Positions 9,828 to 25,090 of a stretch of DNA of 39,718 nucleotides are shown here, piece after piece. The notes beneath the pieces are model-generated. The model saw only the letters and a list, made by a program, of their open reading frames with translations. It did not search any database and was not told where the DNA came from. Origin of the DNA: Escherichia phage ElsieAttenhofer_Bas105; sequence record PQ850601.1. One strand, given 5' to 3'. The first letter of the stretch is position 1; every line of letters begins with the position of its first letter. The position numbers and the translations under genes are program-made.

Positions 9828-9845
9828 ACTATCACTATAGGATTA
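9823..9845 (+). promoter_or_regulatory. Phage RNAP promoter (phi1.1-like)
   Basis: CTAAACTATCACTATAGGATT; predicted +1 at 9840. Confidence 0.7.
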
Positions 9846-9896
9846 GACTCAAGGTCATGACTCAAAGTCGTGGCCTTCATGATTAACCCTAACTCA
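9843..9896 (+). promoter_or_regulatory. RNase III-type processing stem-loop (R1.1-like), copy 2
   Basis: Stem AGGTCATGAC (9852-9861) / GTCGTGGCCT (9867-9876), loop TCAAA, two G-U pairs; conserved flanks as in copy 1. Confidence 0.5.
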
Positions 9897-10098: not shown

Positions 10099-10350
10099 AT
10101 GAGTAAACGATGGTTATTCGACGCATCCCCTAGCCAGTGGTCAGTGTTAGGCCGAACTCACCGCGAGATGAGTGAGGCAGGACTTGATGTCCTAATGGAT
10201 GACTCGCCGTGCTCCGGAAAAACTCTGGTCAGAGTAATTGAAGCAGACGGTGGGAGGCTTCTGGTCTCAAGAGAATTTACCGAAGATGAAATCTTTAGCT
10301 GTGAGCAATGGTGCTTACAACAATTGAACGCTTATAGGAGCTGGAAATAA
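10099..10350 (+). CDS. Gene 1.2-like protein (dGTPase inhibitor family, by position and C-terminal similarity)
   Basis: 83 aa versus 85 aa in T7; C-terminus EQWCLQQLNAYRSWK resembles remembered T7 gp1.2 TDWLNHMYDQLKDWK. Confidence 0.55.
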   Translation: MSKRWLFDASPSQWSVLGRTHREMSEAGLDVLMDDSPCSGKTLVRVIEADGGRLLVSREFTEDEIFSCEQWCLQQLNAYRSWK

Positions 10351-11465
10351 TGACAACTATTAAAACTAACCCGCACCGCGCTGTAGATTACTCTGAGTCT
10401 GGCATTAAGAAAGCACTGGCTGCTGCCGGGTCTCTCGAAGCTGAAGTGAAGTATGATGGTGTCCGGTTGAACCTCCCAGTCTTCCCGACAGGCGAGACCC
10501 AGTGGTTGAGCCGAGAGTCCAAGCCTCTTCCAGCCCTTGAATGGCTATCGGTCCTGACCAGCCTCGATAATATCGTGGAAGACCAGCAGCGCGCTAGCGA
10601 CTGGCGGTGGTTCCTGAAGCAAGCTGGCTATGAGGGGACTGGCCTGATGATTGATGGTGAGGTCATGGTGAAAGGGGTAGACTTCAACACGTCTTCGGGC
10701 CTCATTCGCACGAAGTATGTCAAGTCTAAAAACTGCGCCCTCCACGATGGTGATTGGGACCTCAAGTCCAAGACTACTCAGTTCCGGCTGGACCGAGACC
10801 GTATCAAGGTGGTAGTCTATGGCATCATCGACCTTAACGTCATCCTCGACCCGAAAGCCGAAGGTCCTATCCATAGCGTCACACGCCTGAAGGCCGAAGC
10901 TATCGTCCCTCTACTCCAGAAATACTTCCCGGAAATCGACTGGGTTCTGTCTGAGTCACACACGGTCTATGACCTTGAGTCGCTCAACTCCCTGTACGAA
11001 GAGAAGCGTCTGGAAGGACACGAGGGTCTGGTAGTCAAGGACCCACTTGGCAAATACAAGCGCGGAAAGAAGTCAGGCATGTGGAAAATGAAGCCTGAGG
11101 ATACCATTGATGGTATTGTGGTCGGACTGAATTGGGGGAATGAAGGTCTCGCAAACGAAGGTAAAGTGATTGGGTTCGACGTACTGCTTGAGAACGGTAT
11201 GGTAGTTGCTGCTAACAATATCTCTCAGGCTCTGATGGATGAGTTCACAGAAGCGGTTAAAGCTGAACGCGCCTATATTTGGAATGACTGCATGACTGAT
11301 ATTGAGCGGGAAGAATGTGGTGAGGAATGTCTTGAGGATGTGAACCCCTACAAAGGACATCAATGCGAAGTCTCCTACATGGAGATGACTCCGGATGGTT
11401 CCTTACGTCACCCTAGCTTCAAGTGCTGGCGCGGGACGGAAGATAACCCGACCATTAAGAGCTAA
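10350..11465 (+). CDS. ATP-dependent DNA ligase (T7 gene 1.3 homolog)
   Basis: 371 aa; adenylation motif KYDGVR; extended similarity to remembered T7 ligase (EGHEGLVVKDP, KRGKKSGMWKMKPE, DGSLRHPSF). Confidence 0.93.
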   Translation: MTTIKTNPHRAVDYSESGIKKALAAAGSLEAEVKYDGVRLNLPVFPTGETQWLSRESKPLPALEWLSVLTSLDNIVEDQQRASDWRWFLKQAGYEGTGLMIDGEVMVKGVDFNTSSGLIRTKYVKSKNCALHDGDWDLKSKTTQFRLDRDRIKVVVYGIIDLNVILDPKAEGPIHSVTRLKAEAIVPLLQKYFPEIDWVLSESHTVYDLESLNSLYEEKRLEGHEGLVVKDPLGKYKRGKKSGMWKMKPEDTIDGIVVGLNWGNEGLANEGKVIGFDVLLENGMVVAANNISQALMDEFTEAVKAERAYIWNDCMTDIEREECGEECLEDVNPYKGHQCEVSYMEMTPDGSLRHPSFKCWRGTEDNPTIKS

Positions 11466-12242: not shown

Positions 12243-12401
12243 ATGACTAAGGTTGAGAAGAAATACATCGTGGAGCTTGAGGGTCGCGTTCAGTCCTTCG
12301 AGGTTCCGGTATACGCAAAGTCTCTTGAAGAGGCTACCCTGAAGTCCCAAGAGTATGAGGATGCAGGGTTTGTGGTCGGACGGATTCGTCCTGAGACCTA
12401 A
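12243..12401 (+). CDS. Host RNA polymerase inhibitor (T7 gene 2 homolog)
   Basis: 52-aa ORF not in the supplied track; [52 protein letters not shown] shares SFEVP(I/V)YA...L(D/E)EA...AGF(E/V)V.R(I/V)RP with remembered T7 gp2. Confidence 0.7.
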
Positions 12402-12419
12402 ACTATCACTGTAGGACAG
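12397..12419 (+). promoter_or_regulatory. Phage RNAP promoter (phi2.5-like, variant)
   Basis: CTAAACTATCACTGTAGGACAG; one substitution in the TATA element; +1 at 12414. Confidence 0.55.
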
Positions 12420-12458: not shown

Positions 12459-13157
12459 ATGGCTAAAGAGCAACTGAAGACTTTCACCACTCCGGTAGCT
12501 GGTATCGTTGAGCCTTACGCATGGCTGAACAAAGCAGACACCAAGTTTAATGAGCGTGGTGAGCATAAGGTTAACCTGACTTTCAGTCTGGATGACCCGA
12601 AGGTCCGTAAGATGATTGATGTCTTACAGAAGATTCACGACGATGCGTATGCGAAAGCACTCGCAGACCACGAGAAGAACCCACCTCAGGTTCAGCGTGG
12701 CAAGAAGCCTATCGAGCCGCGTGAAGGCGATATGCCGTGGATTGAGAATGGGGACGGTACTGTTACCCTGAAGTTTAAATGCTTTGCGTCTTACCTTAAA
12801 GACGGCAAGTCCGAGCCTATCGTATTACGGTTCTACGACACCGATGCTAAACTCATCCGTGACGTCCCGAATATTGGCGCTGGGTCTAAGCTGAAGGTCA
12901 AGTTTAAAGTCCTGCCGTTCAAGTGGAACGCTGCGACTGGTGCAAGCGTTAAGCTCCAGCTTGAGTCCTGCCTTCTGGTAGAACTGAAGGAGTGGAAAGG
13001 TGATGGTTCTGGTGGCGATGGTGGATGGGGTGACGATGAAGACCTCGGCACTGGCTACAAAGCGTCAACCGATGGTGACTTCGGGTCTGATGACTTCGGT
13101 GACGATGGTTCCGAGGGTGGTGACGACTCCGGCTCTGGTGGCGATTACGACTTCTAA
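12459..13157 (+). CDS. Single-stranded DNA-binding protein (T7 gene 2.5 homolog)
   Basis: 232 aa; NPPxVxRGKKP, EGDMP, GSKLKVK, ASVKLQLES match remembered T7 gp2.5; acidic Gly/Asp-rich tail ending in DF. Confidence 0.93.
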   Translation: MAKEQLKTFTTPVAGIVEPYAWLNKADTKFNERGEHKVNLTFSLDDPKVRKMIDVLQKIHDDAYAKALADHEKNPPQVQRGKKPIEPREGDMPWIENGDGTVTLKFKCFASYLKDGKSEPIVLRFYDTDAKLIRDVPNIGAGSKLKVKFKVLPFKWNAATGASVKLQLESCLLVELKEWKGDGSGGDGGWGDDEDLGTGYKASTDGDFGSDDFGDDGSEGGDDSGSGGDYDF

Positions 13158-13612
13158 TGGTCCAATGGTCTGCAAAACGGGGGCACTCTGTGGGTGCCTA
13201 CCGCTCTGGACTTGAAGCCAAGAACCAGCAGTGGCTGGAACAGAACGGCGTCAAAGCGGAGTACGAAAGCCATTATATCAACTATGTGATTCCGGCTTCC
13301 GACCACAAGTACACACCAGACTTTATCCTTCCAAACGGTATCATCGTGGAGACTAAAGGTATCTTCGACAGTGATGACCGTAAGAAGCACCTTCTGGTAC
13401 GAGAACAGCACCCAGAGTTAGACATCCGGTTCGTGTTCTCAAGTTCCCGCTCCAAGTTATACAAAGGGTCTCCGACCACGTATGGCGCATGGTGCGAAAA
13501 GAACGGCTATAAGTATGCCGATAAGTTCATCCCGGTTGAGTGGCTGCGAGAGGCGACTGTACGTCTGCCCTCAGGTATACTCATTCCCAAGAAGAAAGGA
13601 GTTAAGAAATGA
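13157..13612 (+). CDS. Endonuclease I, Holliday junction resolvase (T7 gene 3 homolog)
   Basis: 151 aa; YVIPAS, YTPDF, PNGIIVETKG, DSDDRKKHLLVREQHPELDIRFVFSSSRSKLYKGSPTTYG match remembered T7 gp3. Confidence 0.93.
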   Translation: MVQWSAKRGHSVGAYRSGLEAKNQQWLEQNGVKAEYESHYINYVIPASDHKYTPDFILPNGIIVETKGIFDSDDRKKHLLVREQHPELDIRFVFSSSRSKLYKGSPTTYGAWCEKNGYKYADKFIPVEWLREATVRLPSGILIPKKKGVKK

Positions 13613-14100
13613 GCAAGAAGTTTAAACTGTTAAAAGATGTGTTTGGCTGGCCTCGTGGGACTATCGTTACCGAGTGTGAGAAAGACCCCGCACCAACGTC
13701 AGGAATGACCCTAGTTGAGTGCCAGACTCCAGGAGAATACAAACATGGGTCTAAAGGCCACAATACTCAGCCTGAGGGTATGTGGGGAGCATGGGTCGTT
13801 GATTACAAACTTCAGGAAATCAAGCCGGAAGAGAAACTCACTGGTGTACAGACCACTCAAGTCCTGCCAGCTTCTAGCGTACCACCTGTGACTGTGAAGC
13901 GTGAAGTCCTGACCATCGACAAGATTGGTGTAGGCCAGACGTTCATCGTCCACGGTAAACCTGAGGAAGTGTACGTTAAGATTAGTAACTCACACGTCTT
14001 CAACCATAAGCGCCTCCAGATGCACACCACGGATGCACAGCGCTTCACCCAGCACCTGAATCTGGTGGTCGTAGAATTGGTGGTGTACAATGGTAAGTAA
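13609..14100 (+). CDS. Hypothetical protein (163 aa) inserted between endonuclease I and lysozyme
   Basis: ORF with AAAGGAG RBS, ATGA overlap with gene 3 stop; T7 has no gene here; no recognised motif. Confidence 0.55.
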   Translation: MSKKFKLLKDVFGWPRGTIVTECEKDPAPTSGMTLVECQTPGEYKHGSKGHNTQPEGMWGAWVVDYKLQEIKPEEKLTGVQTTQVLPASSVPPVTVKREVLTIDKIGVGQTFIVHGKPEEVYVKISNSHVFNHKRLQMHTTDAQRFTQHLNLVVVELVVYNGK

Positions 14101-14548
14101 GGTACAGTTCAACCCACGGTCCCGTACTGACGCTATCTTCGTTCACTGTTCGGCTACCAAGCCAGAGATGGACATCGGGGTAGAGACCATCCGTATGTGG
14201 CACAAGCAGCAAGGCTGGCTAGACGTAGGCTACCACTTTATCATCAAGCGCGATGGTACTGTGGAAGAGGGTCGCCCGGTCAATGTCGTAGGGTCACACG
14301 TTAAGGACTGGAACTCACGGTCTGTAGGCGTCTGCCTTGTAGGTGGAATTGACGCTAAGGGTAAGTTTGAAGCTAACTTCACTCCGGCCCAGATGAACTC
14401 CCTGCGCAACAAGCTTGCCGACCTGAAGTCCCTGTATCCTCAGGCAGAAATCAAAGCACACCATGACGTAGCGCCAAAGGCGTGTCCAAGTTTCGACTTA
14501 CAGCGCTGGCTGTCTACCAACGAGCGGGTCACTTCCGACCACGGTTAA
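14090..14548 (+). CDS. N-acetylmuramoyl-L-alanine amidase / T7 lysozyme (gene 3.5 homolog)
   Basis: 152 aa; near-identical blocks TDAIFVHCSATKP, WLDVGYHFIIKRDGTVEEGR, VGVCLVGGID, AHHDVAPKACPSFDL relative to remembered T7 gp3.5. Confidence 0.95.
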   Translation: MVSKVQFNPRSRTDAIFVHCSATKPEMDIGVETIRMWHKQQGWLDVGYHFIIKRDGTVEEGRPVNVVGSHVKDWNSRSVGVCLVGGIDAKGKFEANFTPAQMNSLRNKLADLKSLYPQAEIKAHHDVAPKACPSFDLQRWLSTNERVTSDHG

Positions 14549-14571: not shown

Positions 14572-14787
14572 ATGATTAAACTTATCGAATTTCTTGGTCG
14601 TCTGGTGGTGCGTGGTTATCGTCGTGCTGCGGTTATGGAACGAAAGGTAGCAGAGAAGACTGCTGACGGTGCGGCTGATGCTGCTTCTCTGGCTGACAAG
14701 CTGACCATCGCGTCACTGGAAGCTGGCATGAAGGCACGTCAGGCTGACACCAAAGCTGACCAGTTGGCCCAGTTCTTCAAAGCCTAA
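14572..14787 (+). CDS. Hypothetical small protein (71 aa)
   Basis: ORF between lysozyme and primase/helicase; Ala-rich helical sequence; function unknown. Confidence 0.45.
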   Translation: MIKLIEFLGRLVVRGYRRAAVMERKVAEKTADGAADAASLADKLTIASLEAGMKARQADTKADQLAQFFKA

Positions 14788-14805
14788 ACTATCACCTTAG
14801 GGATG
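14783..14805 (+). promoter_or_regulatory. Candidate phage RNAP promoter upstream of gene 4 (divergent variant)
   Basis: CTAAACTATCACCTTAGGGATG; two mismatches in the -4/-2 region; +1 at 14800. Confidence 0.4.
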
Positions 14806-16781: not shown

Positions 16782-16825
16782 ACTCAAGGTCATTCATTTC
16801 GAGTGGCCTTTATGATTAGACTATA
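16779..16825 (+). promoter_or_regulatory. RNase III-type processing stem-loop, copy 3
   Basis: Stem AAGGTCATTC (16786-16795) / GAGTGGCCTT (16801-16810), loop ATTTC; conserved flank TAGACTCAAGG. Confidence 0.5.
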
Positions 16826-25052: not shown

Positions 25053-25090
25053 CCAAGAGACAGACTCAAGAGACAGACTCAAGGTTTCCC
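25047..25090 (+). promoter_or_regulatory. 5' leader stem-loop of the capsid transcript with a 13-nt tandem duplication in the loop
   Basis: GGGAGACC (25047-25054) pairs with GGTTTCCC (25083-25090) as in the T7 phi10 leader; loop holds AGACAGACTCAAG twice (25058-25070, 25071-25083). Confidence 0.55.

Follow-up and report, generated by a model that had tools for sequence, protein, structure and literature searches.

In bacteriophage T7, the genes for endonuclease I (gene 3, 10257-10706) and lysozyme (gene 3.5, 10706-11161) abut, with no gene 3.2 between them. Most of the small, non-enzymatic proteins that T7 expresses from its class I and class II genes (gp0.3, 0.4, 0.6, 1.2, 2, 4.5, 5.5, 5.7 and 5.9) bind a host protein. 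Modular receptor-binding proteins of phages are described by a tailspike/anchor concept, in which a conserved anchor is joined to an exchangeable specificity domain (PMC11990801). Here we analyze gene 3.2 of Escherichia phage ElsieAttenhofer_Bas105 (hereafter Bas105; record PQ850601.1), which encodes a small protein, gp3.2, between endonuclease I and lysozyme. The window, that is, the whole stretch of 39,718 nucleotides (nt) that was analyzed, is a complete T7-like genome of the genus Kayfunavirus. Its 1.5-kb region around gene 3.2 is 94.5% identical to Escherichia phage vB_EcoP-101136BS1 and ~92-94% identical to phages EcoDS1 and K1F, whose reference annotations already name gene 3.2 and gp3.2 (YP_424930 in K1F, YP_002003755 in EcoDS1); in the Citrobacter phages CR8 and CR44b, the same gene is called 3.01 (gp3.01). 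Bas105 gp3.2 is 89% identical to its EcoDS1 counterpart and 94% identical to the nearest metagenomic protein. Compared with K1F and EcoDS1, the Bas105 copy is the same gene in the same slot with the same overlaps, and the differences are allelic only.

Results

gp3.2 joins a conserved core to interchangeable N-terminal modules

Alignments delimit three parts in Bas105 gp3.2: an N-terminal module (N-module) of amino acids (aa) 1-73, a linker of aa 74-93 and a core of aa 94-163. In many relatives, such as Dev2 and SH4, the core is the whole protein (74 aa), and these core-only genes occupy the same slot in many phages. Elsewhere the same core is preceded by the N-module type found in Bas105 (type A), by type B (CKDLxVGTxYxF...), by type C (YRVLNT...FINGM...) or by several others, and the linker motif QVLPASSVPPV stands before the core in most fused forms. 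The N-terminal parts fall into at least 10 groups without detectable mutual sequence similarity (blastp, E < 1e-4). Alignment of type A, type B and core profiles with hhalign likewise revealed no relationship, the only similarity being a 17-column 'LT..DL.VG..F' match between core and type B at 10% probability.

Of the GenBank phage records, 55 have type A (with labelled hosts from seven genera or more), 27 have type B and 4 have type C. In the ~130 others, the core stands alone or follows a rarer module. Each N-module type tested occurs at the gene 3.2 slot only, once per genome. Modules can also be combined: in three proteins (P0095, P0114 and P0115), a complete type B module is inserted in the linker, producing an A+B+core tandem.

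The two halves of the gene have separate histories. No GenBank copy of the N-module exceeds 78.7% identity to that of Bas105. The Bas105 core, by contrast, has 100% identical counterparts in several GenBank copies, among them ST1749, where the core follows type A, and Vec13 and MirsaeidiM_Esher7, where it follows type B. Synonymous divergence (dS) between Bas105 and the relative L003 is 0.64 in the N-module and 0.17 in the core; between the relatives L004 and L005, it is 0.02 and 0.31, respectively. Because dS differs between the gene halves, and in opposite directions in different pairs, we conclude that the modules have recombined.

In Providencia phage PSTRCR_120, an extra 117-aa open reading frame (ORF; L026, 1659-2012) follows the gp3.2 homolog, and its first ~66 residues correspond to the N-module that is fused to the core in P0158. 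P0158 stems from a 551-bp ENA contig; either the extra ORF is a natural donor of the module, or the assembly is chimeric.

The type A module is predicted to form an SH3-like barrel

In two AlphaFold2 runs, the N-module was predicted with confidence as a five-stranded small barrel superimposable on SH3 domains (predicted local distance difference test score, pLDDT, of ~90 and ~94). The agreement is one of fold only. Foldseek searches of the PDB returned PsaE and SH3 at E >0.2, and the significant matches in BFVD were members of the gp3.2 family alone. Identity to known SH3-like small beta-barrels (eukaryotic SH3, PsaE, the KorB C-terminal domain, the Hpy99I N-terminal domain and the Xrn1 SH3-like domain) amounts to 4-20%. 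Sequence families of SH3 and SH3b domains (Pfam SH3_1, SH3_3, SH3_5 and others) gave no match at E up to 1, either to the Bas105 protein or to nine other N-module types. A predicted resemblance at the level of fold says nothing about the ligand of such a barrel.

Core and N-module evolve under contrasting selection

We estimated ratios of nonsynonymous to synonymous substitution (dN/dS) by a count-based method on a tree of 24 type A genes. The ratio rises from 0.10 in the core through 0.23 in the linker and 0.37 in the predicted N-module strands to 0.65 in the N-module loops. In the gene 3.2 frame, values run from 0.10 (core) to 0.58 (N-module), with many synonymous changes. Pairwise comparisons give 0.01-0.1 for the core, at dS of 0.15-0.85, and 0.3-0.57 for the N-module among close relatives. 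As synonymous substitutions are abundant, it is the protein that is conserved rather than a DNA or RNA element embedded in the gene. The core is under very strong purifying selection and is able to stand alone, and the C-terminal half of gp3.2 ranks among the most conserved sequences of the locus, which would be unusual for an anti-defence gene that is dispensable.

A DNA-level cause of core conservation (an embedded promoter, an RNA element or an overlapping gene) was considered and ruled out, given the range of core dS and the lack of a promoter or terminator inside the ORF.

Sixteen core positions are invariant across all clades: G109, F112, Y122, S126, N127, S128, H129, F131, N132, Q137, M138, H139, T140/T141, R145 and F146. 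Many of them are polar (S, N, S, H, N, Q, H, T, T and R). The gp3.2 homolog of L031 (an ERZ1090860 contig of 39,986 bp) reads SSSH for the otherwise invariant SNSH and also carries Q110A in the core; this copy may contain a sequencing error or represent a variant that is rare but tolerated.

Across 104 type A proteins, a fixed scaffold (GWPxGTIVTxC, LVE and QPxGMWGAW) alternates with hypervariable positions at which up to 18 different residues are found (aa 9-11, 16, 28-33, 43, 49-51 and 64-67). We describe the loops as near-neutral or possibly diversifying rather than as positively selected. Could the N-modules be functionless passengers, acquired by illegitimate recombination, with the core alone of consequence? 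Core-only genes are common, loop dN/dS is near neutral, and metagenomes contain deleted, frameshifted and truncated N-modules. Type A shows signs of decay in P0122 (an in-frame deletion) and P0123 (a double frameshift), with the core intact in both, and in the short gene calls P0131, P0132 and P0134, a truncated N-module is all that is present. We nevertheless regard this explanation as quite unlikely. Some half of the positions in type A do not vary among the 104 sequences, and many are significantly negatively selected (G17, T18, I19, V20, T21, P27, V36, G42, K45, H46, G47, G50, G57, A61 and others). Further, the fold is predicted at a pLDDT of ~94, and type A persists in its 55 GenBank phages and their diverse labelled hosts. 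The SH3-like module is optional, and selection maintains its fold but leaves its loops free.

By labelled host, type A is present in 38 of the 86 core-bearing Escherichia records and in 1 of the 59 Salmonella records. Most Salmonella Typhi phages appear to have a core ~79-81% identical to that of Bas105, like the core-only 74-aa forms. This uneven distribution may reflect phage phylogeny rather than host adaptation.

The core is an orphan domain with an invariant polar motif

Unlike the N-module, the core was never modelled with confidence. Its pLDDT was <50 in the first AlphaFold2 run and 55-73 for aa 112-150 in the second, which used a more diverse alignment; even then, the hydrophobic C-terminal strand LNLVVVELVVY stayed below 40. 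The linker scored <50. The failure of modelling on the core is compatible with an obligate oligomer or a fold that depends on a partner, and equally with a shallow alignment. The core is basic in Kayfunavirus, with an isoelectric point (pI) of 9.5-9.7, and not basic in the divergent clade (pI 6.3).

An invariant motif of this kind might belong to a small oligomeric enzyme or to a 'sponge' whose ligand is a small molecule, a nucleotide or a metal, with the N-modules playing a secondary part. Under such an arrangement, S126, N127, S128, H129, N132, Q137, H139, T141 and R145 would form an active or binding site at a subunit interface. The polar, His-containing motif is found in all clades, the core-alone form is common, and the success of the monomer prediction on the N-module but not on the core is what an obligate oligomer might produce. 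However, 70 residues are few for an enzyme, and no similarity to an enzyme or a known sponge family was detected in Pfam, NCBIfam or the PDB. The modelling failure may stem from a shallow, low-diversity alignment, and the selection that maintains the SH3-like scaffolds would be left unexplained. We therefore consider an enzyme or sponge unlikely.

Gene 3.2 is a genus-wide gene without known relatives beyond its own family

An earlier note on this DNA, made from the sequence alone, had taken gene 3.2 for a gene inserted between endonuclease I and lysozyme. Instead, it is a near-universal gene of Kayfunavirus: by tblastn, its core is found in 220 of 50,697 GenBank phage records (248 records share the surrounding region), as one copy per genome in genomes of ~38-41 kb, and the same slot is occupied in divergent lineages. 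Labelled hosts of the core-bearing phages include Escherichia, Salmonella, Enterobacter, Citrobacter, Klebsiella, Cronobacter, Providencia, Kosakonia, Hafnia, Pectobacterium and Dickeya. In a few records, the host label (Enterococcus, Staphylococcus) is implausible. Bas105 gp3.2 has full-length similarity to this family, is encoded between genes 3 and 3.5 by an ORF that overlaps each of them, and contains the family motif Y-x3-SNSHxFN-x4-QMHTT-x3-RF at aa 122-146. Sequence and position together thus identify gene 3.2 as an already catalogued conserved hypothetical gene of the genus rather than a novel insertion.

The family stands apart from everything with an assigned function. Pfam and NCBIfam contain no match to the gp3.2 protein, PADLOC yielded 0 families at E up to 10, and PHROGs offered unannotated families only: PHROG 16385 ('unknown function') matches aa 1-163 end to end (E 2.6e-93) and PHROG 15211 matches aa 94-163 (E 6e-40). 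A PDB sequence search with a full-length profile and a diverse core profile returned 0 matches at E up to 10. Pfam searches with 15 diverse cores and 10 alternative N-module proteins returned sub-threshold noise only (for example Imm11, MVP_shoulder and uDENN, E 0.03-0.1). An exhaustive hidden Markov model search of 1.84 billion cluster representatives recovered 17 clusters, every one of the gp3.2 family. A deep search with a divergent-clade profile returned 281 proteins, all unannotated and without Pfam domains; where their contigs are long enough to judge, they are T7-like and ~39-41 kb in length.

Characterized anti-defence families (Ocr, ArdA, DUF2829/Tad2 and others) produced no match in Pfam, NCBIfam, annotated PHROGs or PDB sequences, and gp3.2 shows none of the defining features of characterized anti-defence, defence, lysis or DNA-metabolism families. 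Full-text literature searches retrieved no functional statement on gp3.2 and no report of protection against defence systems.

The earlier note had named two findings that would count against its reading, a lack of coding potential and clear homology to a housekeeping phage protein. Coding potential is firmly established by 254-281 homologs in public data together with the dN/dS values and the many synonymous changes, and no housekeeping homology emerged from Pfam, NCBIfam or the PDB. The check by remote homology and structure prediction that it had proposed yielded a predicted SH3-like barrel for the N-module, and neither a characterized homolog nor a confident model of the core. gp3.2 is a genuine, selected gene product without known relatives beyond its own family.

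Gene 3.2 is an internal cistron of a class II transcription unit

The coordinates of the locus are collected in Table 1. Most of what the earlier note had said of the locus holds: a 163-aa gene lies between endonuclease I and lysozyme, genes 3 and 3.5 are adjacent in T7, gene 3.2 is coupled to gene 3 and overlaps the lysozyme start, and the overlaps on both sides embed it in the DNA-metabolism (class II) operon.

Table 1. Coordinates of gene 3.2, its parts and its flanking elements in the Bas105 window.
Feature	Position	Strand	Basis or description
Gene 3.2	13609..14100	+	ATG start, 163 codons, TAA stop at 14098-14100 (ORF listing)
Type A N-module	13609..13827	+	aa 1-73; predicted SH3-like beta-barrel
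Linker	13828..13887	+	aa 74-93; length-variable KPEEKLTGVQTT, then conserved proline-rich QVLPASSVPPV
Core	13888..14097	+	aa 94-163; = PHROG 15211; ...VYVKISNSHVFNH..LQMHTT..RF...; orphan domain
Gene 3 (endonuclease I)	13157..13612	+	Phage_endo_I PF05367, E 1.4e-80
Gene 3 / gene 3.2 translational coupling	13595..13612	+	Ribosome-binding site AAAGGAG 13595-13601 and ATGA overlap 13609-13612
Gene 3.2 end (...NGK*) / gene 3.5 start overlap, 11 nt	14090..14100	+	Sequence; gene 3.5 ATG at 14090
Gene 3.5 (amidase, T7-lysozyme homolog)	14090..14548	+	Amidase_2 PF01510, E 1.1e-16
Phage RNA polymerase promoter, phi2.5 equivalent	12393..12417	+	CTAAACTATCACTATAGG repeat family; position that of the annotated phi2.5 of EcoDS1

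The repeat family to which the phi2.5 equivalent belongs, CTAAACTATCACTATAGG, is the phage promoter consensus of the Bas105 genome, with ~12 copies. This copy lies upstream of gene 2.5, and the next one (14779-14803) lies upstream of gene 4. Between the two we found no further promoter and no + strand terminator, and inside the gene 3.2 ORF there is no phage promoter, no sigma-70 promoter and no + strand terminator. Because nothing separates it from its neighbors between the flanking promoter copies, gene 3.2 is an internal cistron of the class II unit 2.5-3-3.2-3.5-3.7.

At the 5' junction, the gene 3 stop codon TGA (13610-13612) shares bases with the gene 3.2 ATG (13609-13611), and the AAAGGAG motif, a strong Shine-Dalgarno sequence, lies 7 nt 5' of the start codon. 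The 4-nt overlap is kept in EcoDS1, K1F, PSTRCR_120 and the divergent loci L045 and L046, and the endonuclease I gene of core-only phages is intact, with a GTG start. The constancy of the overlap makes endonuclease I a candidate partner: the core could be a phage-internal DNA-metabolism factor that tempers or targets junction cleavage or host-DNA breakdown by this enzyme, or that acts with the replisome, while the N-modules tune the interaction. Besides the overlap with gene 3 in every lineage examined, including PSTRCR_120, such a role would suit the co-transcription with genes 2.5, 3 and 3.5, the basic Kayfunavirus core and, given its near-invariance, a conserved phage partner. However, T7, T3 and most Studiervirinae use the same endonuclease I without gene 3.2, the core of the divergent clade is not basic, and T7-like synteny is strong whatever the function of a gene. 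Hypervariable, swappable N-modules would also be hard to explain if both partners were conserved phage proteins. On balance, we see a phage-internal factor as possible, though somewhat unlikely.

The 3' junction is conserved in a similar manner, as the 11-nt overlap with gene 3.5 also occurs in EcoDS1, K1F, L045 and L046, and the slot with both of its overlaps is retained in the most divergent lineages, L045 and L046. This overlap, shared by Kayfunavirus and the two divergent loci, might point to gp3.5 as the target: gp3.2 could influence lysis through a cell-wall-binding, SH3b-like module, or could affect the control of the phage RNA polymerase by gp3.5. We judge either role very improbable. 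Pfam SH3_3, SH3_5 and the other SH3b models do not match, the sequence has no evident signal peptide or transmembrane segment, the conserved part of gp3.2 is the core and not the SH3-like module, and T7 lysozyme works without such a partner. Moreover, in PSTRCR_120 the gene 3.2 homolog overlaps endonuclease I, but the extra ORF intervenes before the endolysin.

Neighboring features of the genome and its relatives

In some relatives, genes 2.5 and 3 are separated by an ORF that encodes an HNH-type endonuclease of 149 aa (2119-2568 in both L004 and L005, 2118-2567 in L012 and 2106-2555 in L020), the position that gene 2.8 occupies in T7. Bas105 has no such ORF, its genes 2.5 and 3 abutting at 13157. 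Where the HNH ORF is present, the N-terminus of gene 3 reads MARTISRGHQVGIYRS... instead of MAQWSAKRGHSVGAYRS....

An alternative-frame ORF of 71 aa (13000-13215, + strand), which corresponds to 'gp2.55' of K1F and recurs in relatives, overlaps gene 2.5 at its 3' end and gene 3 at its 5' end. Lying inside the region that encodes the acidic tail of gene 2.5, it is probably not a gene.

A second repeat family, 'AGACTCAAGGTCA...GTGGCCTTTATGATTA', occurs at 454-510, 9838-9894, 16802-16818 and 25068-25085, two of the copies just downstream of phage promoters. The repeats appear to resemble the RNase III processing hairpins of T7, such as R1.1.

The EcoDS1 annotation (L048) lists homologs of T7 0.3 (ocr-like), 1.2, 2, 5.5 and 5.7, and none of 0.7, 3.8, 4.5, 4.7, 5.3 or 5.9. 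That small Kayfunavirus-specific genes such as 3.2 and 3.7 cover some of the missing T7 functions is pure speculation.

Discussion

Gene 3.2 combines an almost invariant core, which can make up the whole protein, with optional N-modules that are exchanged between phages. The explanation that we favor, tentatively and with less than even confidence, is that gp3.2 is a bipartite adaptor: a class II accessory protein whose core would act on an invariant partner and whose N-module would act on a variable, probably host, partner. In this model, gp3.2 would be a cytoplasmic protein made together with the class II gene products and translated by coupling from the endonuclease I message. The core would be its functional heart, able to act alone, and would probably fold only as an oligomer or on its partner. 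That partner, which presumably does not vary among the Kayfunaviruses that infect Enterobacterales, might be encoded by the phage, as a class II protein, or be a conserved protein of the host. The N-module would serve as an optional, exchangeable specificity module whose hypervariable loops touch another partner, one that varies. The most plausible candidate would be a host factor that differs between strains, for instance a protein of defence or surveillance, and this contact might extend or protect the activity of the core in particular hosts.

We propose binding to a host protein because of the analogy with the small class I and class II proteins of T7. That either module binds protein, what the partners are, that the protein oligomerizes and that it has an anti-defence role are points that we infer. 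The adaptor model is supported by the operon position with its conserved overlaps, by the constraint on the core and its sufficiency, by the swapping of modules and by their confinement to a single slot.

Several considerations weigh on the other side. Neither experiment nor homology points to a binding partner, and with no confident structure of the core, its oligomerization and binding surface are guesses. Typical anti-defence genes are patchy in occurrence, unlike a near-invariant core that is present throughout a genus. A catalytic or ligand-binding site would account for the invariant polar motif just as well, and the conserved coupling to gene 3 may be nothing more than the strong synteny of T7-like genomes. 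In the site-wise analysis of the 24 type A genes, no position passed multiple-testing correction for positive selection (sites 9, 43 and 64 reached nominal p<0.1 only), and with an overall dN/dS below 1, relaxed constraint explains the variability of the loops equally well.

The earlier reading of gene 3.2 as an inserted host-interaction factor is partly supported. The gene is not an insertion, yet the pattern of a core with a variable module hints at a host-interaction role, without proving it, and a fast-evolving, exchangeable N-terminal half is compatible with the idea of host interaction or anti-defence. Our results do not contradict an anti-defence role for the N-module. A bolder form of the adaptor model, which we think somewhat unlikely, would make gp3.2 a plug-and-play platform: the orphan core would neutralize or hijack a conserved enterobacterial or phage protein, and SH3-like cassettes, of at least 10 kinds and sometimes two in tandem, would retarget it or protect it from host factors that are particular to a strain, for instance defence sensors. 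If true, gp3.2 would represent a new class of T7-like phage proteins, modular in build and acting in counter-defence or takeover.

Gene 3.2 itself is already known, having been annotated as an ordinary conserved hypothetical since the K1F and EcoDS1 genomes. What our analysis adds is the core-plus-cassette architecture and its contrasting selection regimes, of which we found no description in the literature searched. The gene is near-universal in a group of phages (K1F, LM33_P1, CLB_P1 and many Salmonella Typhi phages) that serve therapy and engineering. If the N-modules are cassettes for host specificity or counter-defence, the choice of gene 3.2 allele would affect host range beyond receptor binding, and a core with optional SH3-like modules offers a concrete and cheap experimental handle.

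Two groups of described proteins invite comparison. The host-takeover proteins of T7 (gp0.3 Ocr, gp1.2, gp2, gp4.5, gp5.5, gp5.7 and gp5.9) and gp3.2 are alike in being small, of similar size, non-enzymatic, lineage-restricted and of the early or middle expression class, but they have no sequence or structural similarity to gp3.2, and we know of none among them that combines an invariant core with interchangeable N-terminal domains. The modular receptor-binding proteins, such as the tailspikes of K1F-like and other podoviruses, differ from gp3.2 in other respects, as gp3.2 is small, belongs to class II, is non-structural, carries its variable module at the N-terminus as an optional part and has no homology to them. 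Nevertheless, the two share an organization in which a constant module stays fixed and a variable module is swapped by recombination.

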